A DNA stretch of 64,000 nt, from NCBI GenBank assembly GCA_017548925.1, contig JAFYYX010000001.1, positions 828,658 to 892,657 of the forward strand, in the 5' to 3' direction. The notes under the pieces are model-generated. The model saw nothing but the letters and a program-made list of their open reading frames with translations, was not told the origin of the DNA and made no database searches. The translations under genes and the position numbers were made by a program. Positions 31,133 through 64,000 of the stretch are shown one piece after another. This DNA is from Bacilli bacterium (GTDB taxonomy: Bacteria; Bacillota_I; Bacilli_A; RF39; UBA660). Position 1 is the first letter of the stretch. Every line of letters begins with the position of its first letter.

Positions 31133-31134
31133 AT

Positions 31135-31211: not shown

Positions 31212-31220
31212 ATAAATAAG

Positions 31221-31419: not shown

Positions 31420-31448
31420 TTGAAAAAAAATAAAATACATATTATACT
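31420..31448 (+). promoter_or_regulatory. Sigma-A-type promoter for tRNA-Leu.
   Basis: TTGAAA at 31420-31425, a 17 nt spacer, then TATACT at 31443-31448, about 30 nt upstream of the tRNA 5' end. Confidence 0.4.
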
Positions 31449-31477
31449 TAAATAGTCTTATTAATTAAGACAGTGCC

Positions 31478-31567
31478 TGCCCAAGTGGCGGAATAGGTAG
31501 ACGCACAGGACTTAAAATCCTGCGGGTGTTAAAGCTCGTGCCGGTTCAAGTCCGGCCTTGGGCACCA
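31478..31567 (+). tRNA. tRNA-Leu (TAA).
   Basis: UGCCCAAGUGGCGGAAUAGGUAGACGCACAGGACUUAAAAUCCUGCGG...long variable arm...GGUUCAAGUCCGGCCUUGGGCACCA. Confidence 0.9.
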
Positions 31568-43961: not shown

Positions 43962-43987
43962 TTATATTTTTAAATATCATATAAAGA

Positions 43988-44833: not shown

Positions 44834-44838
44834 TTTTA

Positions 44839-46941: not shown

Positions 46942-46984
46942 ATATACATAATTATACTATATTTTATAATACAACTAAAGTTTT

Positions 46985-47018
46985 TTTAATATAAAAAAGG
47001 AGGATTATAATCCTCCTC
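46985..47018 (-). terminator. Intrinsic terminator overlapping the virB4 stop codon.
   Basis: A GC-rich 7 bp stem, aggagga/tcctcct, with loop ttataa, followed on the minus strand by UUUUU(A)UAUUAAAAAAA. Confidence 0.5.
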
Positions 47019-48789
47019 CAGAACCAAATGAATCAAGTTCTTCAGCAGTAGCTACAACATTTATTCTTAAACGTTTAGAACCACATACAAATAAACCTTC
47101 ACCTTGGTTATAGAACTTAATACCTTCTTTTTCGCTTTCATTTAAATCTATTAATAAAGCAAGATCATCAACAGCTTGTTTTTTAAGTCCCATAATTAAA
47201 TAATATGAGGCATTATCAAATATTGCTTTACCATGCATAATCATGTTAGGTGCAGCAAAGTCTGTTGGTTGTTGTGTAATAATAATTGTACCAGTATTAT
47301 ATTTTCTAGATCTTCTTTGAATTTGCGCTAAGAATTCAGCACCAAGTTCATTATGACTAGAAAGTAGTACATGAGCTTCATCAACATATAGAATTGTATT
47401 AATTGATTTATCAAGTGTTAATCCCCAAGCGTACTTAAGTACGTTGAAGAATAATGCATTTTTGATATTTTCATCACTATTAATAATTTCTTTAATATTA
47501 AATACAATAAAATCTGATTGAATATTAAGTGATGTATGACCTGTAAAGTAATATCTAAGTTCTTTAACAAGTGGTCTAATTCTTAGTTCAAGTCTTTCCA
47601 TAACATCTCTTTCATGAGTTTGATCAGTCATTGAAAGAAGTCTACCTTTAATAGTTGCATAAACATCATCAAATGTAGGATAATCTTCTGACTTAAATTG
47701 TGTAAAATCAGAATCAAAATCTATTTTATAACGTTTATAAGTATCTTGAACTACTTCACTAAACATTGCAAGAACATCTTCTTCAATGTTTGGTACATAG
47801 TATTTCATAAATGCTTTTAACTCTTGAAGAGTTCTAGTTAAGATTGTGTAACCTAAACCATCAGCAATATCTTCTTCATCAGCATCAACAACAACTTCAA
47901 GTGGGTTAATCATACCAAATTGTCCACCCTTACCTAAACTTACGAAGTCTCCACCAAAATTTTTGGCCATTTCTTCAAGTTCACCTTCAGGATCGATACA
48001 AACAACTTTACAACCATTTCTTAAATGAGTTCTAACTAATAATTTAGCAGAAGTTGATTTTCCTGAACCTGATGTACCAAGCATAATCATGTTAGCATTA
48101 TTTCTATTATGTTCTTTTTTAATTTGATATAAAAACTGATTAAATAATATAACTCCACCTGAGAAATCAGCTCCAAATAAGCATGAATCTCCAGGATCTT
48201 TAACACTATCGAATACAAATGGATACATTGCTGCAATTGTTGGAGAAGGAATTGGAATACCAACCCTTTCCTCGATATCTTGTTTAGGGAAAATAGGAAT
48301 TATTGATTTTAACACTTTTTCTTGTTCAAACATTAGAGAAACCGCTCTCATGCCCATAGCATCAAGATAGCCTCTTACTTGCATTTTTTTCATTTCCAAA
48401 TCTTCTTTACTATCAGCAGTTATCATTAGATGAAGTTGAAAATCAAAGTTTCTTGATTGAGTAGATGCAAGCATTGATACAAAATCTTGTAACGATTCAA
48501 TGTCTAGACGATATCTTTCACGAAGAGTATTATCCCTTTCATTTTGATATCTCAACTTTAAATCTGCAATTTCTTTATTAATCATTTTTTGCATTACGGA
48601 AAATTGAATAGGAATATGTTTAATAACGGCTTTAACGCCATTAACAGAGGTAATGTCTGATAAAAAACCTACACCAATAATATTAGGGTATGATACAACT
48701 GTCATTATTGTACAGAACTTATTTCCAATTGAAAACTCAGTTGGTCTAAAATTTAAACCTTTAGGTGCAATTTCATTTTTCAATTTCAT
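47005..48789 (-). CDS. VirB4/TrbE/CagE-family conjugative ATPase.
   Basis: Walker A MIMLGTSGSGKST. Walker B ILYVDEAHVLL. Overall DUF87/AAA_10 architecture. 594 aa. Confidence 0.85.
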   Translation of the reverse strand: MKLKNEIAPKGLNFRPTEFSIGNKFCTIMTVVSYPNIIGVGFLSDITSVNGVKAVIKHIPIQFSVMQKMINKEIADLKLRYQNERDNTLRERYRLDIESLQDFVSMLASTQSRNFDFQLHLMITADSKEDLEMKKMQVRGYLDAMGMRAVSLMFEQEKVLKSIIPIFPKQDIEERVGIPIPSPTIAAMYPFVFDSVKDPGDSCLFGADFSGGVILFNQFLYQIKKEHNRNNANMIMLGTSGSGKSTSAKLLVRTHLRNGCKVVCIDPEGELEEMAKNFGGDFVSLGKGGQFGMINPLEVVVDADEEDIADGLGYTILTRTLQELKAFMKYYVPNIEEDVLAMFSEVVQDTYKRYKIDFDSDFTQFKSEDYPTFDDVYATIKGRLLSMTDQTHERDVMERLELRIRPLVKELRYYFTGHTSLNIQSDFIVFNIKEIINSDENIKNALFFNVLKYAWGLTLDKSINTILYVDEAHVLLSSHNELGAEFLAQIQRRSRKYNTGTIIITQQPTDFAAPNMIMHGKAIFDNASYYLIMGLKKQAVDDLALLIDLNESEKEGIKFYNQGEGLFVCGSKRLRINVVATAEELDSFGSGGGL

Positions 48790-49394
48790 TATGCCATCAC
48801 CGTCCCAAAAGTTGTAGTTACTCCCCCATTTAGGAAGTTATCTAAAATCATTCTTAAATCATCGTTTGTTACTTGTGAGGAATTAAGAGAAGAACTTGCT
48901 AAACCGCTTATTATATTATGAAGTTTCTTTTGAAGAATCTCCATTTTCTTTTCTTTAAACAAAATAAAATACTCTGTATCAACAACATTATATTCTACAC
49001 CCATAAATTGATTAGCTTTACTTATATCTTGCATAATCATTTTTCTTGTATATTGATCATGGGATTTATTATACATAATTTGTAAATTAGCTAAATAAGC
49101 GTTTATATCAACGGGTCTATCAGCAACTATAAGCCAAAATTCAAAATCAACAGAATTATAAAAATTTCTTAAGTTATAAACGATAGAATCCTGCTGACCT
49201 TTTTCCAACATAAATATATTTTTTGGGTACACTTTTACACCTGTAACAAAATAACCATCATCTGTAGTAATAATACCATTAGCAATTTGCTTAACAGGTA
49301 ACCAATCATTAGTAAATTGAATATTAATTTTCTTCTTCACTAGTAGCACACCAACCTTTCCAACAATACATTCTACTTTTTGTATAATAATCAT
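48789..49394 (-). CDS. Hypothetical protein translationally coupled to virB4.
   Basis: 201 aa. Its stop overlaps the virB4 start as TAATG. It may supply the N-terminal module that the short VirB4 lacks. Its own start is uncertain because it overlaps the upstream ORF by 71 nt. Confidence 0.5.
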   Translation of the reverse strand: MIIIQKVECIVGKVGVLLVKKKINIQFTNDWLPVKQIANGIITTDDGYFVTGVKVYPKNIFMLEKGQQDSIVYNLRNFYNSVDFEFWLIVADRPVDINAYLANLQIMYNKSHDQYTRKMIMQDISKANQFMGVEYNVVDTEYFILFKEKKMEILQKKLHNIISGLASSSLNSSQVTNDDLRMILDNFLNGGVTTTFGTVMA

Positions 49395-49641
49395 AAAAAT
49401 TTGTTAATAACTGCATTACATTATGATAGTGAGGAACTGGTAATACTAGTAGGGCTGAAATAAGTCCAGGCAGTATTACCAATATTAAAAGTTTAATAGT
49501 AGATGTCTGTACTAAAAACAAAAGTATTAATGTAAATGCAACGCCCATTAAGAATACTACTAAATCAACAGCTGTAAAATATCCAAGTATTAACATTGAT
49601 TTTTTAGAGTTTGCAGGTATTAAATATTGATTTTCTTCCAC
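49324..49641 (-). CDS. VirB3-like small membrane protein.
   Basis: 105 aa with two adjacent TM helices (LILGYFTAVDLVVFLMGVAFTLILLFL and LLILVILPGLISALLVL). It sits immediately upstream of virB4, as ConD/Orf17-type proteins do. Confidence 0.55.
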   Translation of the reverse strand: MEENQYLIPANSKKSMLILGYFTAVDLVVFLMGVAFTLILLFLVQTSTIKLLILVILPGLISALLVLPVPHYHNVMQLLTNFYDYYTKSRMYCWKGWCATSEEEN

Positions 49642-49659
49642 TTTTTATTCCTCCTTATA

Positions 49660-51945
49660 CTACTTTTTACCATCATTTCTAGAAGCCAAATGCTTTTTAG
49701 AAGCAGCATCAAGTTTACTCATGCCATCTAAAGCTCTATTTCTAGAAGCTTGTAATTCATTTAGTTCTTTTTGATCTTTTAAAAATTTATCCATTTCTTT
49801 TTGAATATCAAATAATGTTCCTCTACAACCTACACCATTTTCGTCATCATATGGAATTTCTTTTTGTAATGATCTATTCTTTTCACCCTGTGCATTTGCT
49901 GCTTTTATTGCATCTCCTAAATCTTTAATAGCAGAAAATTTTGCACTAGAATCAATAGGAGTATACCCTGAAGTTCCATCAAATTTTTCGCCAAGTTTCT
50001 TATACTGTTCTTTTACAAGATCAAAGTTAGCTTTTGCATTTTTGAGTTCAACATCATCACCGGAATAATCAACTGTTCTACCATATTGGTCAACATTATC
50101 ATAATAATAACCAGCTAATTTTTTCTGTAATTTAGTATTCTCTGTAATAATTTTCTGCATCATTTCTTCAGGAAGACCTTGTTGTAAAAGTTTATTAGTT
50201 TCAGCGTTAATTGCATCAATAGATGCAGAGTTTAATGCAGCTTTTGAAGCAGAATAAGTCCATGTTTTTAAAGCTTCATTATATTTTGCAGAAAGGACAC
50301 CAGTAGTAGTTACTTTAGAATCAACTTTACCTACTTTTTCCTTACAAATATCCATTATTGTCTTTTGAGCATCAGCATAAGCTTTATCCCTTTCAATGAC
50401 AGGATCATGATCATCATTAATTTGTTTTAGATAATTATCGGCTGCTTTTTTACGAGCTTGAATCTTTCTTTCAAGTGCTTCGTTCTTATAATAGAAATCA
50501 AGTTCGTTTCCTTGTTTCATTTCTTCATATAATGAAGGCGCACCCATATTGTTACGTAATCTATTAAAAGTACCCTTACTTAATTTACCAAATACAGAAG
50601 AGTTTTTATAATCACTTGTAGAATACCATTGTTGATTAGCCATTTCATAGTCAAATGCGTATCCAGAACGTTTAAAACCACCTCTAAAGCCATTTACAAC
50701 ACCACCAGCACTCGTCATGAAGTTTCTAAATGGACTACCATGGTCACCGCGAACTCTTTCACCAATTTTTCTCGCACGATTAGCATAATGATATCCAGCA
50801 GCAGCACCAGCGATTTTGTCAATTGGTTTAATAACAGGAGCAAGAGATTCTTTAAATTCATTAAGGCGTTTGGATAAACTAAACCCATTTTCACCAAAAT
50901 CAATTCCAAATATATCAGATATTAGTTTTGGCGCTTTCTTAATAAACATACAAATACCCATAAATATAAATAATTTAGCAAAAGCTACAACAGATGTTGA
51001 TGAACCTTTAAATATAACAGCAGAAGAATCATCAAAATAATGCTTTATTAATTGAATTAAGTAAACGCCAAACACAATTATGAATATTTTAATAAAGACT
51101 TCAAGAAATGTTTTTATTGTTTCTTTAAACCAAGCCTTAAAAGCTTTATCCTGTCCTGGAATCATTAAAAGAAGTGATGGTAACGGAGCAATAATTTGTA
51201 GGAAACACAACTTAATAGTTCTAAGCCCCATATCAATACAATATACTAATAAAACATAAATTATAAATAATCCAGCTATTCCAGATAAACCAAAATTATA
51301 TTGTATCTTATTTCCTCCACCCTTTTCATTCTTAACATTTTCAGCTAATAACGGTTGAAACATTTTTATATCATTATAGGCATATACACCTTTTTCAGCC
51401 TCAATATAAGAATCTTGCAACTCTTTATTAGTTACAGGATCTTTAACATAAAACATAGTTTCAAAAATTGTAATGGAAAATTCTGATAAGTTAGTTTCCG
51501 AATTATTCATTGGTGCAGTACTAGTGCTGAACAAAATCTTAGGAATTACATTATTATTGACAACAGATTTTTGAACAGCAAAAGCAAAATTAAAAATTGT
51601 AGGAACAAAAACAACAGCAAGAATTGATAGAATAAAGTTTTGAATAAGTTTATATGCAGACATATTTCCTTTAGATAAGTTATCAGGATTTATTATTATT
51701 GTTATAAATGTATAAGCAGCAATGAATAGTGCGACGATACCAACAATAAGGTACATTCTTTGAACAAATTCAGCAACTTTATCTGCAGTTAAAATTCTTG
51801 CCTTAGCAATTGTTATAAAAACAGAATATAGCCATGAAATTATGCCATATATAATGGAATCTATAGCTAAACACAGCTTCATGAATGAAGATACTACATC
51901 TTCTCTAATCAAATCAAAGGCTGCATCCAAAATTTGAATATTCAT
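49660..51945 (-). CDS. VirB6/TrbL-like polytopic membrane protein with a large C-terminal soluble domain.
   Basis: About 370 aa with 6-8 TM helices (FLQIIAPLPSLLLMIP and others). The next ~390 aa are hydrophilic and coiled-coil. 761 aa, comparable to ConG/TcpH. Confidence 0.65.
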   Translation of the reverse strand: MNIQILDAAFDLIREDVVSSFMKLCLAIDSIIYGIISWLYSVFITIAKARILTADKVAEFVQRMYLIVGIVALFIAAYTFITIIINPDNLSKGNMSAYKLIQNFILSILAVVFVPTIFNFAFAVQKSVVNNNVIPKILFSTSTAPMNNSETNLSEFSITIFETMFYVKDPVTNKELQDSYIEAEKGVYAYNDIKMFQPLLAENVKNEKGGGNKIQYNFGLSGIAGLFIIYVLLVYCIDMGLRTIKLCFLQIIAPLPSLLLMIPGQDKAFKAWFKETIKTFLEVFIKIFIIVFGVYLIQLIKHYFDDSSAVIFKGSSTSVVAFAKLFIFMGICMFIKKAPKLISDIFGIDFGENGFSLSKRLNEFKESLAPVIKPIDKIAGAAAGYHYANRARKIGERVRGDHGSPFRNFMTSAGGVVNGFRGGFKRSGYAFDYEMANQQWYSTSDYKNSSVFGKLSKGTFNRLRNNMGAPSLYEEMKQGNELDFYYKNEALERKIQARKKAADNYLKQINDDHDPVIERDKAYADAQKTIMDICKEKVGKVDSKVTTTGVLSAKYNEALKTWTYSASKAALNSASIDAINAETNKLLQQGLPEEMMQKIITENTKLQKKLAGYYYDNVDQYGRTVDYSGDDVELKNAKANFDLVKEQYKKLGEKFDGTSGYTPIDSSAKFSAIKDLGDAIKAANAQGEKNRSLQKEIPYDDENGVGCRGTLFDIQKEMDKFLKDQKELNELQASRNRALDGMSKLDAASKKHLASRNDGKK

Positions 51946-51974
51946 AAAAACCTTCTCCTTTCTTTTTTTGCTTA

Positions 51975-53171
51975 TTAAAGGCCAGGAATACTTGGAAATT
52001 CACATTTGCCTTGTGCTCCTAATAAAGTTAACAAATAACTTATTATTATCGGAAGCATAAATAATAGTAACGCAAATATAAGTCTAATTATAGTTTTTTT
52101 GTTAGTTTTGCTTATTAAATCTGCATCAGAAGAAGCAATAACTTTAACATAATCAATAATAGAAACGACAATTAGAATAAGTGGCGCTAAAAATTTTATA
52201 AATTTAAAAGTCTTATCCAAATAATAAGCAAAATCACCTGCTTTACTTGGATCACCAAGAATCTTTTGACATTGATTTTTTGCATTTGAAGAATCACTAG
52301 AAGTATCGGTTGAATCAATTATTTTAAGAGCTTTACTAGCTAAGCTAGTTAAATTTTTGAAAAATGTTCGCTTTTCAGTATCAGTATTTGCTTCATAGCA
52401 AGTTCCACCCTCACTATATCTATCAATAATTAATTGTGTAGGAGTCTTGTAATCAGCATTTTTAAACTTTTTAATGTAATTACTATGTTTAGAATAATTA
52501 TTAACTATATTATCAAAAGTATAATAAAATTCATTAAGTATACTTTCTTCCATGCATTCAGACGAAATTAAAGATGATGCATTGTTTTTTACAGCAGAAT
52601 GTTTTAAAACTCCAATAACAGCAAAGCAATCAGTACCAACGCAAGTGAAAATATTTGAAGTAATAGATTTCTCAATATCATGAGCTCTGCTAACTAAATT
52701 ATTCATAGATATCTGAGTAGCATACATTTGTAATTTAAGAAGCGTTTTTTGTTTTTCTAATCCAGAAGTTAATATAGCTATTTGAGGTGGACATGTACCA
52801 TAACTATCTAAATATGACAAAAGATTTTCAGTTTCAGATTGTGTAATGGTTTTAGGAGATTTCCATCCGGTTTCGGTGTAATATAAAAATCCATCTTTAA
52901 TTGTACCAGATGAGCCAACAGTTACTTGCGCACCTCCTGTAAAAGTTTGTTTAAATTGTGAAATAAATTTATATCCTGTTGTAGTATTAGGTTTGATATA
53001 TATAATAGCATTTTCATCAGAATTTTTAGAGTTACCAATTTGCCAAGAAATTCCTTCATAATAACACAAAGTTTTATTAATATCTAAACCACCACCACGG
53101 CCAGCATATACATTTTTTATTCCTAAAACTAAGGCACAAATTGTAATAGTAATTAAAACCTTAATTTTCAT
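51975..53171 (-). CDS. Secreted Cys-containing protein with a C-terminal VirB2-like double-TM module.
   Basis: Signal peptide MKIKVLITITICALVLGIKNVYA. The C-terminal ~85 aa, FLAPLILIVVSIIDYVKVIASSDADLISKTNKKTIIRLIFALLLFMLPIIISYLL, is paralogous to the 127 aa protein. Confidence 0.6.
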   Translation of the reverse strand: MKIKVLITITICALVLGIKNVYAGRGGGLDINKTLCYYEGISWQIGNSKNSDENAIIYIKPNTTTGYKFISQFKQTFTGGAQVTVGSSGTIKDGFLYYTETGWKSPKTITQSETENLLSYLDSYGTCPPQIAILTSGLEKQKTLLKLQMYATQISMNNLVSRAHDIEKSITSNIFTCVGTDCFAVIGVLKHSAVKNNASSLISSECMEESILNEFYYTFDNIVNNYSKHSNYIKKFKNADYKTPTQLIIDRYSEGGTCYEANTDTEKRTFFKNLTSLASKALKIIDSTDTSSDSSNAKNQCQKILGDPSKAGDFAYYLDKTFKFIKFLAPLILIVVSIIDYVKVIASSDADLISKTNKKTIIRLIFALLLFMLPIIISYLLTLLGAQGKCEFPSIPGL

Positions 53172-53192
53172 AATTACACCTCATTTCATTTA

Positions 53193-54557
53193 TTATTTTG
53201 AATTTTTAATATAATAGTCGCAAGCATCATCACCTGCAAAGCATAATGCACATTTTTTAAAATCACCATTACTCGCAGTTCTATCTTTATCACTTTGTGC
53301 AAATGATATAATTGAATTAATAATAGTTGGAATTAAGAATATTACCAATCCGATAATAATCTTCTTAATAAATAATTGTGTTGTTTTTTCAATCGCATCT
53401 TGGTTATCAGCAAATGCTGCTTTTCCATAATCAATAGAACCATAAATTATTAAAAGTATAGGAACCAATATTTTTGCTATTGTAATAATAATATGAATTA
53501 TTTTAAGTGTTTTTAAAACTGCTGAATCGTCACAAAATGTAAATGGTTTATCAGCCGCTTCATTATACTTTTGCTTACATAAAGCAGAATTTGGATTTAG
53601 CTTACAATATCCATATGTTCCAGGGATATTAGGGTTTCCAGAAGACCCTGAATTAGTTTCTTTATCATACAAGGAAACAGCTGAAAAATATATGTTACCA
53701 TCAATATGATAAGCTCTATAAAGAGGAATTGATCTAGTTTCAAACGCTGTATGGACCTCATATGTTATAGGCATAACAGTATCTTTAACATCATTATAAG
53801 TATAATATGTCTTTGAGGTACAACAATAGCCTCCATTTTTGCATTTAAAATCTTGAATTCTTATATTACTATTAACTTGTTCTGAATTAATATATGGTAC
53901 AACTTCAAACGCAGTAGCAATCATCTTATATAGTCCCATTGTTCCACTTTTAGCAATAACCTCATAATTAATCGCTAGTTTATCCCCATGATAATTATTT
54001 TCTTCATCACCATAATAACACATAAGTTTACCAGTTTTATAACAAGAATTTGCACTAACAGTATATGACTTTGAAACTAAGGAATCAATATTAGATCCAG
54101 CAGTATTTAATGTAATATTTGTGATTTTATATTTATCACTAGAAGTTTCATTATATAAAATACCTAGTTGAGGACATTCTTTTAGCTTTTCAATTGCACT
54201 TTTCTTGCTTCCATTAACAGTGTAATTATAAATATCAAAAGGACCAGTAACATTATATCCACCAGTAACTTTATCTATAGAAAATTTGCTTCCTTCAATA
54301 GAAAATGTGACATTCGTAGTAAGAGAATTTACTTCATTTACCGGATCTGTAATTGTCATAACCAAATTTTGATCTTTAGTATCAGTCAATTGAGACGAGC
54401 CGGAAGCAAAAGATGCCTTGCCATAATCATCAAAAGAAACAACATTCCTCATAACATTACTCAAAGAATACTTACATGTCTTTGTTTCAGCAAATACATT
54501 GTTTTTCATAAAAAAGAATGAAAATATCATTATTAATAAAAGGCTTTTTTTCTTCAT
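53193..54557 (-). CDS. Secreted Cys-rich protein with a C-terminal VirB2-like double-TM module.
   Basis: Signal peptide MKKKSLLLIMIFSFFFMKNNVFA. 16 Cys. The C-terminal part, IIITIAKILVPILLIIYGSIDYGKAAFADNQDAIEKTTQLFIKKIIIGLVIFLIPTIINSII, has the same motif as the 127 aa protein. Confidence 0.6.
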   Translation of the reverse strand: MKKKSLLLIMIFSFFFMKNNVFAETKTCKYSLSNVMRNVVSFDDYGKASFASGSSQLTDTKDQNLVMTITDPVNEVNSLTTNVTFSIEGSKFSIDKVTGGYNVTGPFDIYNYTVNGSKKSAIEKLKECPQLGILYNETSSDKYKITNITLNTAGSNIDSLVSKSYTVSANSCYKTGKLMCYYGDEENNYHGDKLAINYEVIAKSGTMGLYKMIATAFEVVPYINSEQVNSNIRIQDFKCKNGGYCCTSKTYYTYNDVKDTVMPITYEVHTAFETRSIPLYRAYHIDGNIYFSAVSLYDKETNSGSSGNPNIPGTYGYCKLNPNSALCKQKYNEAADKPFTFCDDSAVLKTLKIIHIIITIAKILVPILLIIYGSIDYGKAAFADNQDAIEKTTQLFIKKIIIGLVIFLIPTIINSIISFAQSDKDRTASNGDFKKCALCFAGDDACDYYIKNSK

Positions 54558-54611
54558 AAAACTTACACCTACACTTATTACATAATTATACCAAAAAAAA
54601 TATTGAAAATA

Positions 54612-54644
54612 AATAAAAAAACAACCTGTTTGGTTGTTTTTTAA
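54612..54644 (-). terminator. Intrinsic terminator or attenuator downstream of the VirB2-like gene.
   Basis: A 10 bp stem, aaaaacaacc/ggttgttttt, with loop tgttt, flanked by an A-run and a T-run. Confidence 0.55.
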
Positions 54645-54650
54645 ATCTAA

Positions 54651-55034
54651 TTATTTATTTGCTTCTTGAACAGCACTGCTACAACTTGATCCATTTGGAG
54701 ATGTAACACATTTTTGGCAAACATTATATCGATATTTTTTTCCATTTTCAGAACTACCATCTAAGTCTTTGAAACTATCAATTAAATTGAAAATAGCTCC
54801 TACTAAGAATGGAATGAAGAAAATAACAACACCAGCAATTAATCTTTTAATTAATGTTTGAGTTGCTTTTTCAACAGCATCATCTTTTGACGCAATAACT
54901 GCCTTTCCTAAATCAATCATACCAAAAACAATTAATAAAATTGGAATAACAATTTTAAAAACCATTAAAATTCTACCAACTAATTGCCAAATTGGTGAAG
55001 ATTGAACACAAAATGCTAAATCACCTAATAACAT
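54651..55034 (-). CDS. VirB2-like candidate conjugative pilin (small two-TM protein).
   Basis: 127 aa. TM1 is ILMVFKIVIPILLIVFGMIDLGKAV. It is followed by DDAVEKATQTLIKRLIAG, then TM2 VVIFFIPFLVGAIFNLI, then a Cys-containing tail. Confidence 0.55.
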   Translation of the reverse strand: MLLGDLAFCVQSSPIWQLVGRILMVFKIVIPILLIVFGMIDLGKAVIASKDDAVEKATQTLIKRLIAGVVIFFIPFLVGAIFNLIDSFKDLDGSSENGKKYRYNVCQKCVTSPNGSSCSSAVQEANK

Positions 55035-55126
55035 ATAAAATCTCTCCTTCTTACTAGTTATATATTACATTATTTTTATAATTTCGTCAAGTTTTCTTAT
55101 CATATTTGTTAAATAGATGTATATTG

Positions 55127-55366
55127 CTAAAAAGTGCTTTGCATATGTTGAATTAATGCATCAATTACCTTTTCATTTTTTTCATACTCAATAAGTTCAA
55201 GAGTATCAATTCCATCATCAGTATTTATTACTTTAAAAAAATATAATGTATCGTCAGTATCATCATCTGATGAAGCTGCGAAATATTTTACACCTTCATA
55301 AGTAACAGAATCAACAAGATTAAAACTTAATCCATTTTCTAAAGTTACATTTTGACCTTTTTTCAT
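55127..55366 (-). CDS. DUF1292 (UPF0473)-family small acidic protein.
   Basis: 79 aa. NVTLENGLSFNLVDSVTYEGVKYFAA...DDTLYFFKV...DDGIDTLELIEYEKNEKVIDAL fits the DUF1292 pattern. Confidence 0.55.
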   Translation of the reverse strand: MKKGQNVTLENGLSFNLVDSVTYEGVKYFAASSDDDTDDTLYFFKVINTDDGIDTLELIEYEKNEKVIDALIQHMQSTF

Positions 55367-57384
55367 TATAAGTTTCTACCTCCATGATTCCTATTGTATT
55401 CATTAATAATATTTTTCTTTATCTCTTCTAACTTAGCTTGAGCTCTTATAAATATATTTTCATGCATAAAATGATGCTTTATTTTTTCATATTTTTTTTG
55501 ATCATTTATATAAATATCTCTAAATTTTGTAAATATCTTTTCTTTAGAATCAATTAGTGCGTTTTTAATTTTAGTTTTTTGCTGTGATATTTTATCAATA
55601 GTATTATCTTTAATATCAATTACCTTAAGTTCTATTGCATCACCAGTATTATTACAAAATGCTATTAAAACGTCTCTTAGAGTATAATTTTCCAAATCGT
55701 TTTGTTGCCCCATATCTTCAAAAGTTTGTTTCTCTGAATTGGTTTCATCGCTAGGTACAAAAGGTATGCCTGGCATAGTAGGATCATTTTGAACAATATT
55801 AAATTGTTCCTTTAAAGCATCATCATTCTTAGTTTCATCAGGTCCAAAATCATCTTCCTTTGAATTAGTTTCTTTTGGAACATAATCAGGAATAGTTGAC
55901 ATTCCAAGAATTGTAGCATCATTTTGATTATCAGTTGAATTATTTCTAGATTGTTCAGCTTCTATCTGAGATGCAAAACTTTGTGATAGATTAATAGTTG
56001 ATTGTTCTAAACTAGATTTACTATTTTCTGATTCAGGAACAGCTGGTTCTTCTACTACCTGCTCAGATTGTTCATTATTTAATTCATGCTCAGATTGATC
56101 CTTAATTGTTTCTTCATCATTTGCTTCTTCAATAGACTCAGAAGTACTATCTTTACCTAATGGTGTAACATCATTACTTATAACATTTTCGTTATTTAAA
56201 GAATCATTTGTTATTTCTTTATTATCATTATCTAAATAATTTACTTCTTCAGAACTAGATTTGCTATTTTCTTCAGAAGTATTTACACTTGAATTTTCAT
56301 TAGTAAAACTAACAGTTCTATTATTTACTAAGTTAAAGAATTTTGATGTTCTTTCTCTACTATCATTTTCTAAAACTATTTCGTTTTCTTCTAAATAATT
56401 TCTAAATTCAAATTCTTTTTCAATAATCTCATAAAAGAAACTATGAAATGCTCTTGAACATTTATCAATTTCTTTTCCATTACTATCAATATCAATAAAA
56501 TCAGTTTTATTTAAGATTCCATTTTCAAAAGCTTCTTTACAATTAGAAGTAATATTAAGCATTGATTTTAAAAATTCATTTCTCATATTAACAAAATTTA
56601 TTTCGATATTACCTTTATTATAAACATCTAAAATATTTTGTTTTTGGATTTTAATATCTTCTTTTAATTCATGTTTCTTTTCATTTTCTTGTTTTAATAA
56701 ATTAGTTAGTTCCATAACTTCATTATAATCAGAAGATCTAACTATTTTATCTTGATATTCTTTAATTTTTTTATTACATTCATTTAGTTCATCTTCGTAA
56801 TCACCTAATAAAGTAGCAGGATATGATAATTCATCTATCCAACTATGAATATCTTTTAAATTATTACTTAACACTTTAAAATTATCTCTTAAATATCTAT
56901 ATTTATTTAAATTATCTAAATTATGTTCAGTTGTTATAGCACTTTCTAATTTAGAAATTTTGTCATTAATAAAATATTCAAAAGTATTCTTATAGTTTTT
57001 TGTGTATGCATTTGCATACTCATTAGATGTATTTCTTAAATCATTTATTTTTAAAGTGATTGCTTTTTCAACCTCATTTAATAATAAAACTTTATCAAGT
57101 TTAAGCTTAGGATCTTTTTTGATTTTATATTTACTTCCAAGTTTTCTAAGTTCATTATATGACATACCTTCCAAATTTTTTAGAAGTTCTTCAGCACTGG
57201 TTATCTCGTTTTGAATACTTAAAATATTGTTTGTAAAAGTATTAAATCTAAAATCACCATAAAAAGTGTGACTAGACTCATTAACTAAACTAGTTAAAAT
57301 ATCGATTAACTTATCATCGGCTTTTTGTTTAACCACTTCAACTTCTCTGTCAGTTAATAATGTATTTTCTATATTATATTCCAT
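55366..57384 (-). CDS. Large acidic hypothetical protein (672 aa) with no TM segment.
   Basis: Coiled-coil N-terminal half. A central Ser/Glu/Asn/Asp-rich low-complexity region. A helical C-terminus. Its stop overlaps the DUF1292 gene start. Confidence 0.55.
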   Translation of the reverse strand: MEYNIENTLLTDREVEVVKQKADDKLIDILTSLVNESSHTFYGDFRFNTFTNNILSIQNEITSAEELLKNLEGMSYNELRKLGSKYKIKKDPKLKLDKVLLLNEVEKAITLKINDLRNTSNEYANAYTKNYKNTFEYFINDKISKLESAITTEHNLDNLNKYRYLRDNFKVLSNNLKDIHSWIDELSYPATLLGDYEDELNECNKKIKEYQDKIVRSSDYNEVMELTNLLKQENEKKHELKEDIKIQKQNILDVYNKGNIEINFVNMRNEFLKSMLNITSNCKEAFENGILNKTDFIDIDSNGKEIDKCSRAFHSFFYEIIEKEFEFRNYLEENEIVLENDSRERTSKFFNLVNNRTVSFTNENSSVNTSEENSKSSSEEVNYLDNDNKEITNDSLNNENVISNDVTPLGKDSTSESIEEANDEETIKDQSEHELNNEQSEQVVEEPAVPESENSKSSLEQSTINLSQSFASQIEAEQSRNNSTDNQNDATILGMSTIPDYVPKETNSKEDDFGPDETKNDDALKEQFNIVQNDPTMPGIPFVPSDETNSEKQTFEDMGQQNDLENYTLRDVLIAFCNNTGDAIELKVIDIKDNTIDKISQQKTKIKNALIDSKEKIFTKFRDIYINDQKKYEKIKHHFMHENIFIRAQAKLEEIKKNIINEYNRNHGGRNL

Positions 57385-57483: not shown

Positions 57484-57801
57484 CTATTTAATCATTCTTT
57501 CTCTTTCATTAATAGTTTCTTTGGGTAAAGATTTAACTTGATTAACTAATTCTTCAGATAATTCTTTCATATTAGTATCATCTCTTTTAATTAATCTTTC
57601 AATAATATCCAATTCTTTTTTTAAAGCATTATATTTGTCATCTAGTGTAAATATGTATTTTCTATACGGAAAAGAAGATGGAACGCTATTTGAAGATATA
57701 TTAGAAATCCTAATTAAATATGAAATAGTATTAGTTGCAAGATCTAAATTAGATTTATTTGGTAAATATAATCCATCTGCAGGATATTTAAATTTTGTCA
57801 T
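57484..57801 (-). CDS. Small helical protein (105 aa). T7SS-associated candidate.
   Basis: I re-called the start at the internal Met, which has a perfect AGGAGG RBS 9 nt upstream. The track ORF began at 57867 and overlapped the upstream gene by 80 nt. The C-terminal half is helical and Lys/Glu-rich. Confidence 0.5.
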   Translation of the reverse strand: MTKFKYPADGLYLPNKSNLDLATNTISYLIRISNISSNSVPSSFPYRKYIFTLDDKYNALKKELDIIERLIKRDDTNMKELSEELVNQVKSLPKETINERERMIK

Positions 57802-58105
57802 TATAAGTAGCCTCCTGCTCTTTTTTTGCTTGTTTAAGTAAATGATTAGATATTTCAGCAGAATCATTCGTTAATTTTATTGGTATATTTCTTAGTAGAT
57901 TACCAAATTTAATATATTTTTTCTTTTCAAGCGCAACATGATTAAAATAGTAATTAGCTTGGTTACCTATCCACTCTTTAGTTATATTAGGTACTTGATC
58001 TAATCTTTTAAAAAATGCATTTATTAAATCAGTATATTCATCTGCATATTTTATTAAATCTTTACTGATTTCTTCAACTCTAACAGTATCAAAATTAGAT
58101 ATCAT
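57788..58105 (-). CDS. WXG100-like small protein (105 aa).
   Basis: The central motif is TKEWIGNQANYYF (W-x-G at residues about 44-46). The size and helical character match WXG100/Esx-like proteins. Confidence 0.5.
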   Translation of the reverse strand: MISNFDTVRVEEISKDLIKYADEYTDLINAFFKRLDQVPNITKEWIGNQANYYFNHVALEKKKYIKFGNLLRNIPIKLTNDSAEISNHLLKQAKKEQEATYNDKI

Positions 58106-58514
58106 AATCGTTCACCTCTGAATACACACTAAATTGATCGCCACTATTTTTAGTTACAATAGTTTTTGTGGCGTTTTTAGCTTTAGTAACAGTCTTCTTA
58201 GCTGACGCTGCAGCGGTTTCTTCAGCTGCCTTAATTTTATTAATTTGATCATTACAGTATTTAATTTCCTTATCAATGGCAGGTATAATAGTCTTAAACA
58301 AATAACTTCTAATATTATTAATATTAAGTGAAATAGTATATAAACGCTTTGATAATGCAGTTTCATCATTATTAACAAGGTAATTTGAAGAAACATTATT
58401 TTTTATTTTACCAGTATATCCTTTAAAGTCAGCCAACTTACTTACCATACTCACAATTTTACTTCTTAGAGCTTGATAATTCTTTTTCTCTTCTTGAAGA
58501 TCATAAATTGTCAC
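58095..58514 (-). CDS. Small helical protein (139 aa). T7SS-associated candidate.
   Basis: Its ORF overlaps both neighbours by 14-20 nt, suggesting a translationally coupled series. Predicted coiled coil. Lys/Ala-rich C-terminus. Confidence 0.5.
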   Translation of the reverse strand: MTIYDLQEEKKNYQALRSKIVSMVSKLADFKGYTGKIKNNVSSNYLVNNDETALSKRLYTISLNINNIRSYLFKTIIPAIDKEIKYCNDQINKIKAAEETAAASAKKTVTKAKNATKTIVTKNSGDQFSVYSEVNDYDI

Positions 58515-58872
58515 TATGATTCAACTCCTCTACATAATCATTTAACTTTTTAGTAATTAAATTGAAATCATCACTTTTTTGTGCAAAAACATTAGCCATA
58601 GTTGTGGCGCCTTCATGCATTTTTCGATTTAATGCAGTTAAATCGTTAGCATAACTAATAACATTATTCTTTACTGTATAAAACTTAGGCCTTAAATAAG
58701 TATTATAATAAGCATTAATCTCATCATATGGTTTACCTTGATAAACAGATTTTAACTCCGAAAATCTATCATCATATTTATTTAGAATAATATTTACCTT
58801 ATCTGCCATATTAATTATTTCTACGATTAAATGGGCTAAATCTTTTTCGTTAATACCACCTACAACGTCCAT
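58501..58872 (-). CDS. Small helical protein (123 aa). T7SS-associated candidate.
   Basis: ORF with an AGGTGAT RBS. Helical, with no TM segment. Confidence 0.5.
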   Translation of the reverse strand: MDVVGGINEKDLAHLIVEIINMADKVNIILNKYDDRFSELKSVYQGKPYDEINAYYNTYLRPKFYTVKNNVISYANDLTALNRKMHEGATTMANVFAQKSDDFNLITKKLNDYVEELNHSDNL

Positions 58873-58998
58873 ATATAATCACCTCAAAACACATCTACTA
58901 TAAACATATTGTACCTTATTTAAAATAATAAAAAGATGATTAAAATAATATTTGTCAAAAAATTTACAAAAAAAATACTGCAAAAAGCAGCATTTTTA

Positions 58999-59502
58999 TT
59001 AATGTTGACCTGAATCAATAGATACAGGGCCAGAATTATCATCAATTCGAATTTGTTTAGCAGCATCTCTTAATGATTTAGCATCATCTTGAACAAGCCC
59101 TGAAATATCTGATGAAGCCGCACGATATTTTTCTTTAATAGCGGCAAGTTCTTTCTTTTCATCAATCAAAACAGAAACGTAAGCAGTCATTATATCTTTT
59201 ACTGCTTTTAAGAATATTTGTGCAGCCTCAAGTGCTGGACCTTTTAATCCCTTTTCAAGAATAATATCAGCATTAAAACCATTAATAGTATCCTGAGCTT
59301 TTGTTATGTATGTATTTATACTAGAAATAAGGCTATCAACGCCTGGTTCACTTATACCAGTAAAACTTGTTTCAGGAGCTTTCGCAAACTCATCAAAATA
59401 AGACGTAGCTAAGTTTTCAAGTGTCATTTTAGCGCCACGTAAATTAGCACCAATAGTAACGCCCCACTTGTCTTCCGAATAATTTTCAAAAGAAATTCCC
59501 AT
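58999..59502 (-). CDS. Hypothetical helical protein (167 aa), translationally coupled to the WXG100 gene.
   Basis: Its start overlaps the upstream gene's stop. It contains KWGVTIGAN and alpha-helical Ala/Lys-rich segments. Confidence 0.5.
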   Translation of the reverse strand: MGISFENYSEDKWGVTIGANLRGAKMTLENLATSYFDEFAKAPETSFTGISEPGVDSLISSINTYITKAQDTINGFNADIILEKGLKGPALEAAQIFLKAVKDIMTAYVSVLIDEKKELAAIKEKYRAASSDISGLVQDDAKSLRDAAKQIRIDDNSGPVSIDSGQH

Positions 59503-59831
59503 TATAAATCATCTCCACTTCTATCACTAACGATTGTTGCATCAACGGTATCCATATCCTCAATAATTTGATTAACACAGTCTTTAAAAACCATAAAAGC
59601 TTGATCTAATCCATAACTAACTTTACGTCTATCGTCTTGAATATTTTTAACAAATTGATCAGCAGAAGCACCAACCCAAACATCTTTGATAGATCTTTCT
59701 ATTCCATCAGCACCCTCAAGTAAAACTTGTTGTGCTGCACCTATAACTTCAGAATTAATTTGGCCTATAGCATTCTTCATACCCTCAACATCATATCCTA
59801 TTGTTGAATTATCAATAGATAACATATACAT
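59502..59831 (-). CDS. WXG100-family (EsxA-like) protein.
   Basis: 109 aa. The central motif DVWVGASADQF is W-x-G followed by an A..F helix turn, as in EsxA (WEGQAFSRF). RBS AAAAGGAGGAT. First gene after the intergenic gap downstream of the YukD-like gene. Confidence 0.6.
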   Translation of the reverse strand: MYMLSIDNSTIGYDVEGMKNAIGQINSEVIGAAQQVLLEGADGIERSIKDVWVGASADQFVKNIQDDRRKVSYGLDQAFMVFKDCVNQIIEDMDTVDATIVSDRSGDDL

Positions 59832-59952
59832 CCTCCTTTTTGTGTACCAGCAAGTACGCTTTTACTTTACAATCATTGTAATTCAAATAAATCTATAAAT
59901 AAACCAGAATTCCAAAAATTAACACTAATTTTACACAAAAAAGAGCCTATAT

Positions 59953-60204
59953 TTATATATATATAAGCTCAGTTCCGTTTTTAATATCAGTATTTCTAAG
60001 AAGAGTTCTTGGATCATAAGAAACTCCGGTATCAGCGTTAAATAAAATTCCATTATTTTTAATTGGATACACTTTAGATAAATCATTTATAATTTTAGAA
60101 AGTTTATAACATATATCGCCTACATATTTATTTATAGGTAAATATATTTCATATTTTTCTTCAATTTCAGGAACAAGTAATGTTACTAATACTTTATATT
60201 CCAT
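59953..60204 (-). CDS. esaB: YukD/EsaB-like ubiquitin-fold T7SS protein.
   Basis: 83 aa. MEYKVLVTLLVPEIEEKYEIYLPINKYVGDICYKLSKI...GTELIYI gives a beta-grasp pattern like YukD. Its start overlaps the essC stop. Confidence 0.7.
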   Translation of the reverse strand: MEYKVLVTLLVPEIEEKYEIYLPINKYVGDICYKLSKIINDLSKVYPIKNNGILFNADTGVSYDPRTLLRNTDIKNGTELIYI

Positions 60205-63200
60205 TACTCATCACCATCCCTTACAACTTTAATAACATTATAAACCCCATCATTAATCTCATATCCAATTCCATCAAATCTTAGTTTTTTATCCTCTTGA
60301 GACATAATATTAGTAGATAAGATGCTTTGTGAATCTAAACCATTTCCAACCCAAATACCATTAGATAAATCAATTTGATCAAACCATGTTTCAGGTTTTA
60401 GATTCTTAATATCATTATAGTCATCAGCTAATATATATATTGTTTTATGACTGTTAATAATATTATTAAACATATTATTGAATATTAATTGTCCTGCTTC
60501 AGATAAAACTTTCTTATATGAGCCAGCCCCTACAACAATGTTAACGGCCCAGTCTTGAGCTTCATTTCTTGTTAAAACATCATTTTCTAACGCAGCAACC
60601 ATTACATTCAAGTTTTCATTAAACATTCTAACATCAATAATCAATTTATTAAATATTTTATTAAAATCAATAACTCTAGTTTTAACATTTGGTATATTGG
60701 AAAGAATTGATGTTAATCCATAAATGAATTCCATATTTTCTTTCAGATCATTACAAGTAATAACATGTATTTTTTGCGATAGTAAATTGTATTTAGCAAC
60801 ATCCTTTTTATAATAATTAAATCCAATTGGAATATCTTCAAGTCCTTGACAGTATTTTATTAAATCAGAACTTGTAATCTCTTCAGGTAATTTTACGAGT
60901 TGCTTTACTTTATATTTATAAAAATCTACACATTTATCAGCATAAGACCTTAATAAATCAAGTTCTTTATCTTGCCTATAAATAAATGCAGTTTGAAATT
61001 CACAATAAGAATCATTATCAAGCGAATTTGTCTTACAAATACCCCTACCTAATGTCTTCTTAGGAATAAGCTCTCTTCTACAATTTGTTATAGCTCTATA
61101 CTGTGAATCGTCAGACATGTTAAGTAAAATAAGATGATTAAAGAATTGTAATTGTCTTTGCCTAATAGCACTTTGTGAACCAGTAATAATAAATATAATT
61201 CCATATTTTGCAGAATCTCTAAATAAATTATTCATAAGATCAGTTATTCTAGAAAAAGACTCCATAAATACATCATAATTATTAATAACAATTGAAATTA
61301 AAGGCAGTTTGGTTTCATTGACTCTATTATAATATTCATATGAACCATTAAAATCAGATAATAGATTCTTCCTATCTTCTAGCTCGTTAATAATCATTTC
61401 TAAAATACCAGTTACAGTGTCAGTATCTTCTTGAAAAGCGACTTCACCAACATGAGGAAATTTACTAAATTTTTTCATAGTTTCAGCGCCAAAGTCGATT
61501 ATATAGAATGCTATTTCCCTTGGATTATGTTCAGATATTGACGAAAAAATTATAGTTGATAAAAGTTCATCTATTCCAGAATTATTTTGGCCCATTATAA
61601 CTATATTACCATCTTTAAGGTTTAAATATAACGGACCTTGTTCTTGTTTTCTAGGTTCATCATATTCACCAACAATTATATTAAAATCATACGGTTTTGC
61701 CTTTTGATGGTTATACTTTTGAATAAGATCACTTAATAACATATAATCTTGAATATTTTCAAGCCATAGTGGTCTATTCTTAAGAGCCAATTGCTTTGAA
61801 GAATTAGATACATAAGAAACAACGTTAATTAATTCTTCCCCAAATTCTCCGCTTATATTTTCGACCTTTTCTTTATAAGAACCAATTACCCTACCAATAT
61901 TATCAATATATTCAATTGAATCATCAATATCATGCTTAATAATATTTGAAGGATGATATTTAGCGCCAGACCATGCTGACTGCCCAAGAGTAAATAAATC
62001 ATCAGTACCAACTTGAAGATAATAAGAACCTATCTGTTTTAAATATGCAGCATCTGGTTTTCGAATAACTTCATTAGAATCACTTTTTTCTTGTACTTTA
62101 AAACACACTTTAAATCTTGAATTTGACCATATTTGATCATTAACTACTCCAGATGGTTTTTGTGTTGCAAGAATTAAATGAATACCTAAACTACGTCCTA
62201 TACGTGATGTAGATATTAGCTGATCCATAAACTCAGGTTGTTGAGATTTTAATTCAGCAAACTCATCGCATATAATTAATAAATGACTTAAAGGTTCATC
62301 AAGCATACCTTTTCTATAGTATTCCTGATACTTATAGATATTCATTGAACCTTCTTTTAGTTTTTCACGAGCCTCATTAAACATTTGTTGACGTCTCTTT
62401 AATTCAGACTCGATTGCAGCAATTGATCTATATATTTCTGACTTATCTAAGTTTGTTATCTTACCTGCTATATGAGGAAGTTTGACACCGAGTTCGCTGT
62501 TTTCAAAACTCATTGCAAGTCCTCCACCTTTGTAGTCAATAATTACAAATTGAACTTCTTCAGGGCTAAAGTTAACAGCTAAAGATAATATTAAAGTTAC
62601 AAGCCACTCAGATTTTCCTGATCCAGTAGTACCAGCAACTAGACCATGTGGCCCATATGCTTTTTCGTGAATATTCATTTTAAAAATTTCACCATTTTGA
62701 TCAATACCTACGGGTACTGCTAGGGATAAAACCGGATTATTATTTTGCCATCTTGATAAACAATTTAATTGTTCTACCCTACCAACATTATATGTTTCTA
62801 GAAAAGTTAAAGATGACGGTAAATCATACTTCGCTTTTTCCACTTGAACTGGAATATTAGAAATATTACGGCAGGATTCGTAAATATTAAAATTACTATT
62901 ATCCAAATCTGCTTTAAATATTTGTTGATTATCATTAATATTACTAGTTAGTATAGCAGAATCAGTATCACCTATACTAATAAAATTAGAAGCTTCACTT
63001 GGAAGAAGAGATATACTCTCAGATGTCAAAATTATTGAGAATCCCATGTTCTTCTTATATCTTAAGATTTTATTTATTAAAGATACATTTCTAACTGATG
63101 ACATATCATCAATAAATAATACATAATAAGGTTTAAAATCCTGATATCTTTTTCTATTATTTCGATCAGAACCATTATCTTCTAAAATTTCTTGTTCGTC

Positions 63201-64000
63201 ATTAGCAACTCTAGCATCAAATATTTTTTCTAAATCTAATGAGATTGTTGATAAGTCTTCTATTGTGTTCGCGTAATATCTTATTGTTTTATGATTATCC
63301 CAGCAATGAGGAATCATCTTTAAATAACTCCATTTTTCTGGCTCTTTCGTGAAAACAACAAACTTTAGATCTGTATATGAATGAAAAGTAATCATTTGAA
63401 GGAAAACATTATCCATAAATTTTTTTACTAAATCATCACTTCCAACAATCGCACTTATATTACTATCTGTAAAGTTATAAGAAATTGGGACATTCTCTAA
63501 AACAAGAGAGGATTTAACTATTTCCTTCATCTTAGTTAAAAGACTATCTTCTTCATCAATAGAAAACTTATCTACAGGAACGTTTATTTGAAGCAAAGTT
63601 TTACGATTACCAAGACCAACTCTGATTGATAAAAAATCATCATGATCAATATTTCTTTGCCACAATTCTTTCTTTTTATTTAAAATAATATTTGAACAAT
63701 CGGCAGCAGACGGATAGTTTTCGCATATAGTATCTTTTTGTCTATTTTTTAAATCATTTATTTCATTTGATTTTTTATCAAGATATGCACTATATTTTTC
63801 TACACGCTTATTTTCGCGAAGTCTTAATCTTTTTTTGTTTAATTTTCTTGTAATGGTTGGCCATAAAATAGCTCCTAATATCATCGAAACTGACATAGAA
63901 ATAGATACTAATAATCTCAGAAAACTACCTTGTCCAGACATATACATAGATACATAGCTTAAGAAGGAAAGCAATGACGTAGCAACCATGGTAACTTGTG
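60204..64000 (-). CDS. essC: EssC/YukB-like T7SS FtsK/SpoIIIE ATPase. Partial: the reading frame stays open to the window edge.
   Basis: The D1 block [36 protein letters not shown]...[10 protein letters not shown], Walker B [11 protein letters not shown] and an ILATQKP motif match the EssC D1 signature. Two further degenerate P-loop regions follow ([13 protein letters not shown] and others). N-terminal TM helices. There is no in-frame stop between 63989 and 64000. Confidence 0.8.
   Translation of the reverse strand, partial: [1264 protein letters not shown]

Follow-up and report, generated by a model that had tools for sequence, protein, structure and literature searches.

Six small helical proteins encoded behind essC: a candidate Esx-like module in a type VII secretion variant of uncultured Bacilli

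What do six small helical proteins do when their genes stand in a row behind the gene of a type VII secretion ATPase? The question is raised by a 64,000-nucleotide (nt) stretch of DNA (hereafter the window; GCA_017548925.1, contig JAFYYX010000001.1, positions 828,658 to 892,657) from the metagenome-assembled genome (MAG) of an uncultured Bacilli bacterium with a GC content of about 27%, in which such a set occupies positions 57484-59831 of the minus strand and follows essC and an 83-amino-acid (aa) gene. The models of type VII secretion systems (T7SSs) are few and come from cultured organisms; they combine EssC with EssB, EsaA and EssA (or with EccB, EccD and EccE) and export one or two WXG100 proteins together with variable toxins. 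An original prediction, made from the letters of the window alone, saw in the six genes a set of substrates and chaperones typical of a Bacillota-type system (T7SSb). Our comparison of related loci makes it rather probable that they form a fixed small-protein module instead, the core co-exported Esx-like set of an undescribed T7SS variant. Loci of this kind recur widely among uncultured Bacilli with small, low-GC genomes from gut and rumen metagenomes, and their conserved parts are an EssC bearing an FHA domain, a YukD-sized protein of 83 aa and the six-protein set, joined in most genomes by a protein with an HExxH motif.

Six genes conserved in content and nearly in order

The six genes, here called families A to F in their order of transcription, are the following.

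59502-59831, minus strand: family A, WXG100-like (WVG); open reading frame (ORF) of 109 aa, probably 107 aa from 59825
58999-59502, minus strand: family B, WXG100-like with an L-K-G turn; 167 aa
58501-58872, minus strand: family C, WXG100-like with a Y-x-G turn; 123 aa
58095-58514, minus strand: family D, two-helix hairpin with a low-complexity tail; 139 aa, GTG start
57788-58105, minus strand: family E, WXG100-like (WIG); 105 aa
57484-57801, minus strand: family F, helical, of no known family; 105 aa (maximal ORF 127 aa, start 57867)

All six ORFs are present on the minus strand where they had been placed, and the two motifs quoted for them, WVGASADQF in the 109-aa and EWIGNQANYYF in the 105-aa protein (A and E), read exactly so. 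Each of the six starts is preceded by a strong ribosome-binding site. For A, GGAGG directly abuts the first ATG and the public gene calls give 107 aa (an exact lookup found the 107-aa form on record and not the 109-aa form), so that the start is likely the second ATG, which lies at proper spacing from AGGAGG. The F start adopted here is internal to the maximal ORF (MTKF at 57801) and has AGGAGG 9 nt upstream. The junctions are less uniform than the overlaps of 14-20 nt that had been described: C/D and E/F do overlap by 14 nt, whereas D/E overlap by 11 nt, A/B by a single nucleotide (TAATG), and B and C are separated by a gap of 126 nt. No transmembrane or hydrophobic segment is predicted in any of the six proteins. 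Their isoelectric points divide them into an acidic group of A, B and C (pI 4.1-5.3) and a neutral to basic group of D, E and F (7.9-9.4). None exceeds 167 aa and there is no LXG toxin among them, in agreement with the original prediction.

To compare the set with other genomes, we drew on fetched neighbourhoods of EssC homologues, on species-representative genomes and on metagenomes searched with the 83-aa family as the seed, and applied profile hidden Markov models (HMMs) of the six window proteins to the essC loci, with alignments built from neighbouring loci. Although a word-indexed search with the 109-aa protein had returned only the protein itself, one member of each of the six families was found behind essC and the 83-aa gene (yukD) in about 25 independent loci from uncultured Bacilli in different assemblies. 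The six ORFs are therefore genuine genes and not chance ORFs. Pairwise identities to the window proteins range from 20 to 59% across the six families, and the ORFs are kept throughout. The canonical order is C-A-B-D-E-F, from which the window and its closest relative, locus L002 (EssC 74% identical), depart by having A-B-C-D-E-F. In the related loci about 130 nt set the cassette off from the 83-aa gene (121 nt between this gene and A in the window), and within the cassette the genes are tightly packed, with median gaps of -1 nt for E>F, 2 nt for C>A, 3 nt for D>E, 10 nt for A>B and 23 nt for B>D. Beyond the cassette, the roughly 25 loci continue with unrelated housekeeping genes and contain no large protein with a helical N-terminus. 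That small helical proteins linked to a T7SS are encoded here is thus borne out by six families conserved behind EssC; that they are a substrate/chaperone set of the T7SSb type is not, since their content is fixed and their order nearly fixed across diverged genomes, which is how a core module behaves rather than the variable island of a T7SSb.

Some genomes carry two full modules of essC, yukD and cassette, with convergent essC genes in L005 and tandem essC genes in L006; the second set in L005, C-A-(B?)-D-E-F, is far more divergent. An extra copy of B stands between yukD and C in L016, L017 and L019. The more distant EssC relatives L011 and L034 (36-40% identity) are followed by different sets: proteins of 205-208 aa with an N-terminal H-W-K-G motif plus a protein of 1115 aa (L011:14774-20394), and six or seven different WXG-like small proteins in a row (L034:10267-12538). 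Multiplied hairpin sets after essC are hence common in these uncultured lineages.

Four divergent WXG100-like families and two further helical ones

Family tests against Pfam used 11 aligned members of each family; the gathering score of Pfam WXG100 (PF06013) is 27.3. The clearest case is A, all 11 members of which match WXG100 (best 2.8e-7), with W50 and G52 of the WXG motif invariant in the 11 sequences, while the window copy taken alone scores 13.4-13.5 bits (E ~0.09). Searched against the PDB, the A profile finds Staphylococcus aureus EsxA (2vs0, E=1.9e-4) and further 3zbh (Geobacillus EsxA), 3gvm, 3o9o, 4lws and 4i0x, so that two WXG100 proteins of Streptococcus agalactiae and two actinobacterial Esx proteins are among its best matches. 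E is more divergent: 5 of 11 members match WXG100 (best 6.3e-3) and the window copy does not, G47 is invariant and W45 present in at least 90% of the members, and the first PDB match of the profile is the ESAT-6-like 12fa (E=0.01) with the WXG motifs aligned, followed by EsxA 3zbh. Members of both families measure 93-114 aa. The original prediction that these two WXG proteins are WXG100-like is thus supported by their family profiles, which match EsxA and ESAT-6-like structures.

The same prediction counted only these two, and here the profiles correct it, as the 167-aa and 123-aa proteins also match. WXG100 is matched by 7 of 11 members of B (best 5.2e-5), which has an N-terminal extension of about 45 aa, L-K-G at the turn, a GGFxGIS motif and, in most members, a conserved I-x-L-D at the extreme C-terminus; its profile gives weak full-chain matches to structures of Bacillus anthracis EsxB. 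For C the figure is 5 of 11 (best 2.5e-5), with EsxA and EsxB structures among weak PDB matches and a weak match to NF033533 ('T7SS-associated'). The families are also linked to each other: the E HMM picks up the window copies of C (5e-5) and A (2.5e-4), and hhalign on enlarged family alignments gives probabilities of 94.7% for B-C, 72.6% for C-E and 53% for A-B. Profile alignments bring the turn motifs into one register (A W-V-G, B L-K-G, C Y-x-G, E W-V-G; the strict W-x-G is absent from B and C), and they further show that helix 1 opens with a common G-[IY]-[DSN] motif. Judged by these profiles, A, B, C and E are divergent members of the WXG100 superfamily and diverged paralogues of one another.

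D and F stand apart. They match WXG100 neither with 11 members each nor, for D, with 149, and hhalign gives at most 9% for either of them against A, B, C or E. D has a conserved Y-x-V-N-D turn and an IPAID motif, and a profile built from four sequences retrieved at least 327 cluster representatives (50% identity, E <= 0.001) from a library of 1.84 billion proteins; one distant representative was located in the same nine-gene module and another directly after an essC/83-aa pair. No Pfam family was matched by D (11, then 149 members), and its profile found nothing but coiled-coil noise in the PDB. Structure prediction, which had been proposed as a check for hairpin folds, gave a clear answer for this family: AlphaFold2 with a 149-sequence alignment yields an antiparallel two-helix hairpin (helices 3-44 and 53-124) with a predicted local distance difference test score (pLDDT) of 92.9 and a predicted template modelling score (pTM) of 0.75. 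Foldseek returned only non-significant generic hairpins for this model, Esx and LapA3/LapA4 chains among them. F is present in every complete cassette, always directly 3' of E, and carries a conserved P-x-x-F-x-Y motif; its most conserved feature is the extreme C-terminal tail, [KR]ERDR[ML]I (ERDRMI in short). It matched no Pfam family with 11 members and found only coiled-coil noise in the PDB. AlphaFold2 on the single sequence predicts a helical protein at low confidence (pLDDT 68; helices 16-33, 47-90 and 94-104), and Foldseek with this model gave no match. D and F are thus hairpin or helical partners of no described family. When their profiles were concatenated, the search recovered four D-family proteins only. 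One further candidate member of D, the 601-aa protein P0214 in a 5.3-Mb contig, proved to be a spurious coiled-coil match.

The kinship with Lap-type targeting proteins that had been suggested did not emerge. No member of any of the six families (11 each, for D also 149) matched DUF3130 or DUF3958. LXG appeared below threshold only (of 11 members tested per family, in two of B and in one each of A and C), and so did stray YwqH-like and DUF5344 matches, in at most two members per family.

Two observations touch on a possible destination of A. The N-terminal motif of family A (atiGYDaegvqealnnL, residues ~8-25, in the window at 59760-59810) matches the CW_7 repeats of the Cpl-7 lysozyme (5i8l), each of the three repeats with about 10.7 bits and all together with a summed E-value of 7e-6; as three weak repeats inflate the score, the match to this peptidoglycan-binding module is probably a chance result. 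It nevertheless sits oddly beside a 261-aa protein in L012 (L012:17961-18746), which joins a LysM-like N-terminal region through a Ser/Gly-rich linker to a C-terminal WXG100 domain of family A (E=2e-35 against the A HMM). This reverse LysM-WXG100 fusion is a hint that proteins of family A are destined for the cell wall.

EssC, the hairpins and the neighbouring type IV secretion genes

The genes and elements that frame the cassette are these.

60204-64000 (past the window end), minus strand: essC (TsxC) ATPase; the window holds about residues 265-1528 of 1528 aa
59953-60204, minus strand: 83-aa protein of YukD/EsaB size, a candidate TsxB; 1-nt overlap with the essC stop
59943-59970, minus strand: terminator-like hairpin and T-run at the end of the 83-aa gene, from a consensus scan
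58971-58997, minus strand: terminator-like hairpin with an 11-bp stem after the A-B pair, in the B/C gap, with a U-run to ~58963

The original prediction had placed the cassette behind essC and esaB, and the first half of this assignment is secure. Locus L001, which shares 14.5 kb of identical sequence with the window, gives the full length of EssC (1528 aa). With 895.7 bits against a cutoff of 778.4 for NCBIfam TIGR03928, and with Pfam FtsK_SpoIIIE, the ATPase is by sequence a genuine EssC; its N-terminal ~230 aa give weak but coherent profile matches to FHA domains, among them YukB (9qks) and Geobacillus EssC (5fwh), with E-values of 0.015-0.07. Dozens of homologues at 50-74% identity exist, in metagenomes or MAGs only. 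The identity of the 83-aa protein as EsaB is less well founded. It follows essC in all related loci with a mean column identity of 67% and has the right size and position, but it matches no Pfam, NCBIfam or PDB sequence, and the link to YukD/EsaB by sequence consists of a weak C-terminal alignment.

The weak hairpin and U-run that had been noted at about 58975-59000 after the first gene pair is real: its folding energy is -12.9 kcal/mol (z = -3.1 against shuffled sequences). The equivalent site 3' of B in L002 also has a hairpin and U-run, of different sequence (-18.4 kcal/mol for the whole 69-nt stretch after B, a second downstream hairpin included), and this recurrence at the same place with another sequence speaks for a genuine terminator or attenuator in the sub-lineage. 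The element after A-B is likely an intrinsic terminator or attenuator. On the other side of the pair, a hairpin and U-run comparable to the one at the end of the 83-aa gene follows yukD in L005, L012, L015 and L023. Hairpins on both sides suggest that A-B has a dosage of its own, as esxA has elsewhere, and the pair is probably expressed at a level different from that of C-D-E-F.

Upstream of essC this genome has housekeeping genes, for RNase J, an AAA protein, a diaminopimelate dehydrogenase-like protein and a D-Ala-D-Ala carboxypeptidase. The typical T7SSb locus that the original prediction assumed is not found: no Pfam family of essA, essB/yukC or esaA occurs among the called genes within 10 kb of essC (L001-L005, L012-L014 and L039). 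What adjoins essC in 20 related loci is a single-pass membrane protein of about 470 aa, whose N-terminus is short and cytoplasmic and whose extracellular domain carries a conserved HExxH motif (e.g. VIFHELTHC; L002:6037-7446, L005:1952-3361, L009:8483-9883 and 17 further loci), which matches no Pfam family and which we consider a candidate extra component of the variant T7SS. A search of the window did not find it, and it is also absent from L001; there the carboxypeptidase gene abuts essC, and in comparison with L002 two glycosyltransferase genes and the HExxH gene are missing.

Directly downstream of the cassette, a complete-looking gene set for a conjugation-like type IV secretion system (T4SS) of the Gram-positive type extends over 41583-57384 on the minus strand. 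Its order is a 672-aa acidic protein, DUF1292, pilin, two proteins with a pilin-like module, VirB6-like protein, VirB4, hydrolase and VirD4; a 281-aa protein is also encoded in the cluster.

54651-55034, minus strand: T4SS pilin, 127 aa
51975-54557, minus strand: proteins of 454 aa and 398 aa with signal-peptide-like N-termini and a C-terminal pilin-like membrane module
49660-51945, minus strand: VirB6-like protein
47005-49641, minus strand: VirB4 in three consecutive ORFs of 105, 201 and 594 aa
44839-46941, minus strand: NlpC/P60+SpoIID cell-wall hydrolase
41583-43961, minus strand: VirD4 coupling protein

The best matches of these genes are families of Mycoplasma integrative and conjugative elements (Mbov_0396, Mbov_0397 and MMCAP2_0566), and neither a relaxase nor an integrase was detected between 32 and 64 kb. 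The three VirB4 pieces jointly span positions 2-889 of the 894-position Mbov_0397 profile and meet in one frameshift with a 71-nt overlap and one ATGA stop/start; this could mean a pseudogene, a gene that is split by nature or a fault in the assembly. The modules of the 454-aa and 398-aa proteins are homologous to the 127-aa pilin, with 47% identity in one (72 aa aligned, E=3e-19) and 26% in the other (82 aa aligned, E=2e-8), so the cluster contains three pilin-like paralogues, two of them with large extracellular domains. T4SS genes near the cassette are confined to the window (with L001) and L002 and absent from the other loci, which argues that the small proteins belong with essC and not with the T4SS; the 672-aa protein likewise occurs only where the T4SS cluster does. 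Farther away lie two clusters of tRNA genes, seven at 26323-26991 and five at 30978-31567, which show the window to be chromosomal; the tRNA-Leu gene at 31479-31567 is on the strand opposite to its neighbours.

A possible export module and its place among T7SSs

How such a set might work can be outlined as follows. The six proteins would assemble in the cytoplasm as heterodimeric or larger helical bundles, most likely with A paired to B and E to F, and possibly C to D. The first two pairs are suggested because the partners are always adjacent and one has the WXG turn while the other has a conserved tail, the third because C and D are adjacent and overlap in the window. A [W/Y]-x-G turn from one partner and a C-terminal tail from the other (I-x-L-D in B, ERDRMI in F, a variable low-complexity tail in D) would together make up a bipartite signal like that of EsxA/EsxB in the actinobacterial system (T7SSa); EssC, reading the tails, would carry the bundles out of the cell. 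As the content is fixed across lineages and no toxin-sized gene stands alongside, the six would act as core co-secreted, EsxA-like components rather than as chaperones of LXG proteins or as strain-variable toxins. Secretion, pairing and signals are what we infer from the comparison. They are in line with what a published survey of T7SSs describes (Garrett, Higginson and Palmer 2024, PMC11217815): WXG100 proteins leave the cell as dimers, the T7SSa signal combines the WXG turn of one partner with the tail of its mate, the EssC/EccC ATPase is contacted through C-terminal sequences of EsxA/EsxAB, and T7SSe and T7SSg possess WXG100 pairs whose members are not identical.

Several points weigh against an export module. 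EssB, EsaA and EssA were not found in the neighbourhoods, which leaves no evident route to a channel; the 83-aa protein is not tied to YukD/EsaB by sequence; and the HExxH partner is missing beside essC here, so that the window copy could be impaired. Taken alone, the window copies of A and E remain under the Pfam WXG100 gathering score, neither D nor F shows recognisable homology to a T7SS family, and the Foldseek matches of D are generic antiparallel coiled coils. The assignments of pairs and signals come from gene order and conservation alone, and every source is an uncultured MAG.

A more far-reaching version of the co-export reading is possible, and we hold it only tentatively: the locus would represent an eleventh T7SS arrangement, and the six proteins would be cargo that builds an extracellular hetero-oligomer (a surface fibre, a pore or a wall-associated complex) and not toxins. 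Such an arrangement may include the membrane-anchored HExxH metallopeptidase-like protein and a TsxB-like protein, may be confined to uncultured small-genome Bacilli, and may be joined to a T4SS cluster in the window genome and its closest relative.

Other roles have to be weighed against co-export. The six could be Lap-like targeting factors or chaperones, as the original prediction suggested; they would then not be the main cargo but bind the helical targeting domain of a large effector encoded elsewhere, or the downstream 672-aa protein, and escort it to EssC. The sub-threshold YwqH-like and DUF5344 (Lap-type) matches of a few members would fit such escorts, as would the large proteins behind WXG-like genes in distant relatives (e.g. 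1115 aa in L011), the LysM-WXG100 fusion in one locus and the published finding that nearly every new T7SS variant has small WXG100-related genes beside its candidate substrates (PMC11217815). We nevertheless think this role unlikely, for the set is fixed, whereas Lap sets usually vary and go with particular toxins, it lacks DUF3130 and DUF3958 matches, the roughly 25 loci run on into housekeeping genes with no large protein of helical N-terminus, and the 672-aa protein is restricted to the T4SS-bearing window and L002 and has no LXG or WXG100 signal.

Nor is it probable, by a clear distance, that the proteins stay in the cytoplasm as adaptors or regulators which replace EssB, EsaA and EssA or gate EssC. 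The canonical T7SSb membrane partners are indeed absent from all neighbourhoods examined, the content is as conserved as that of a structural module, and neutral to basic D, E and F facing acidic A, B and C would suit stable complexes. Proteins devoid of membrane segments cannot, however, replace membrane subunits; four of the six resemble WXG100 proteins, which are exported in all characterised cases, and the conserved C-terminal tails in the set look like export signals. Least credible of all is that the six are pilus- or transfer-associated factors of the adjacent T4SS that came to lie near essC by accident. They are on the same strand, directly upstream of the pilin, VirB6-like, VirB4, hydrolase and VirD4 set, and L002 shows the same juxtaposition, but all other loci keep essC, yukD and the six genes with no T4SS genes nearby. 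We thus rejected the cassette as part of the T4SS cluster, an assignment that these comparative data largely refute.

Should the co-exported Esx-like set be confirmed by its export, it would define a minimal T7SS, add D and F, both without a Pfam model, to the T7SS repertoire, and offer a natural system in which to ask whether EssC reads the turn motif of a hairpin pair or its C-terminal tail. The lineage keeps EssC with no known membrane partners nearby, and has held on to the six-protein set over a divergence of at least hundreds of clusters. That the composition of the set is fixed speaks for a role in housekeeping or in interaction with the host, in commensals with reduced genomes, and not for interbacterial warfare.

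Among known systems, the closest likeness is to the WXG100/ESAT-6 proteins (PF06013; EsxA and EsxB of S. aureus, B. anthracis and Mycobacterium tuberculosis), which share the size of about 100 aa, the W-x-G motif, the adjacent EssC/EccC gene and presumably the helix-turn-helix fold; here, in contrast, the window copies lie under the Pfam threshold, there are four paralogues per locus rather than one or two, and two extra families, D and F, carry no WXG100 signal. With the T7SSb (EsxA, EsaA, EssA, EsaB/YukD, EssB/YukC and EssC/YukB) the locus has in common the EssC equivalog with its FHA-like N-terminus, the YukD-sized gene and the adjoining WXG100 genes. It differs in that essC comes first and the small genes follow, in that essA, essB and esaA are not in the neighbourhoods examined, and in that there is no variable toxin/immunity island, the HExxH protein being the only other conserved neighbour in most relatives. 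Lap1/Lap2 (DUF3130/DUF3958), LapA3/LapA4 (DUF5082/DUF5344) and the EsxB/C/D partner proteins of S. aureus LXG toxins are small helical hairpins, as the six probably are, and several of them are likewise encoded per translationally coupled T7SS operon, but they show no significant sequence match to the six, which have no cognate LXG toxin or immunity gene and are conserved instead of polymorphic.

The RefSeq-based survey that defined T7SSc-T7SSj found TsxA (WXG100), TsxB and TsxC to be nearly universal, with the subtypes defined by partners such as the kinase TsxD, the PPM phosphatase TsxF, the DUF6382-FHA protein TsxJ and the EspG-like TsxG, and further by the DUF5050 propeller TsgL, the Ig-rich TsxI and the AAA+ protein TsfV (Garrett, Higginson and Palmer 2024, PMC11217815). 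With these subtypes, above all the simple T7SSg and the two-WXG100 T7SSe, the locus shares a build around TsxA, a candidate TsxB and TsxC; and as T7SSg and T7SSh sometimes stand beside Tad pili, so the window module stands beside another surface machine, a T4SS. None of the subtype partners is among the Pfam lists of the fetched essC neighbourhoods. T7SSg, moreover, has an ATPase without FHA domains, whereas the window EssC has an FHA-like N-terminus. Given that the survey was drawn from RefSeq, that the lineage is known from MAGs only and that the subtype partners are lacking, the arrangement is most simply seen as a further variant of the T7SS.

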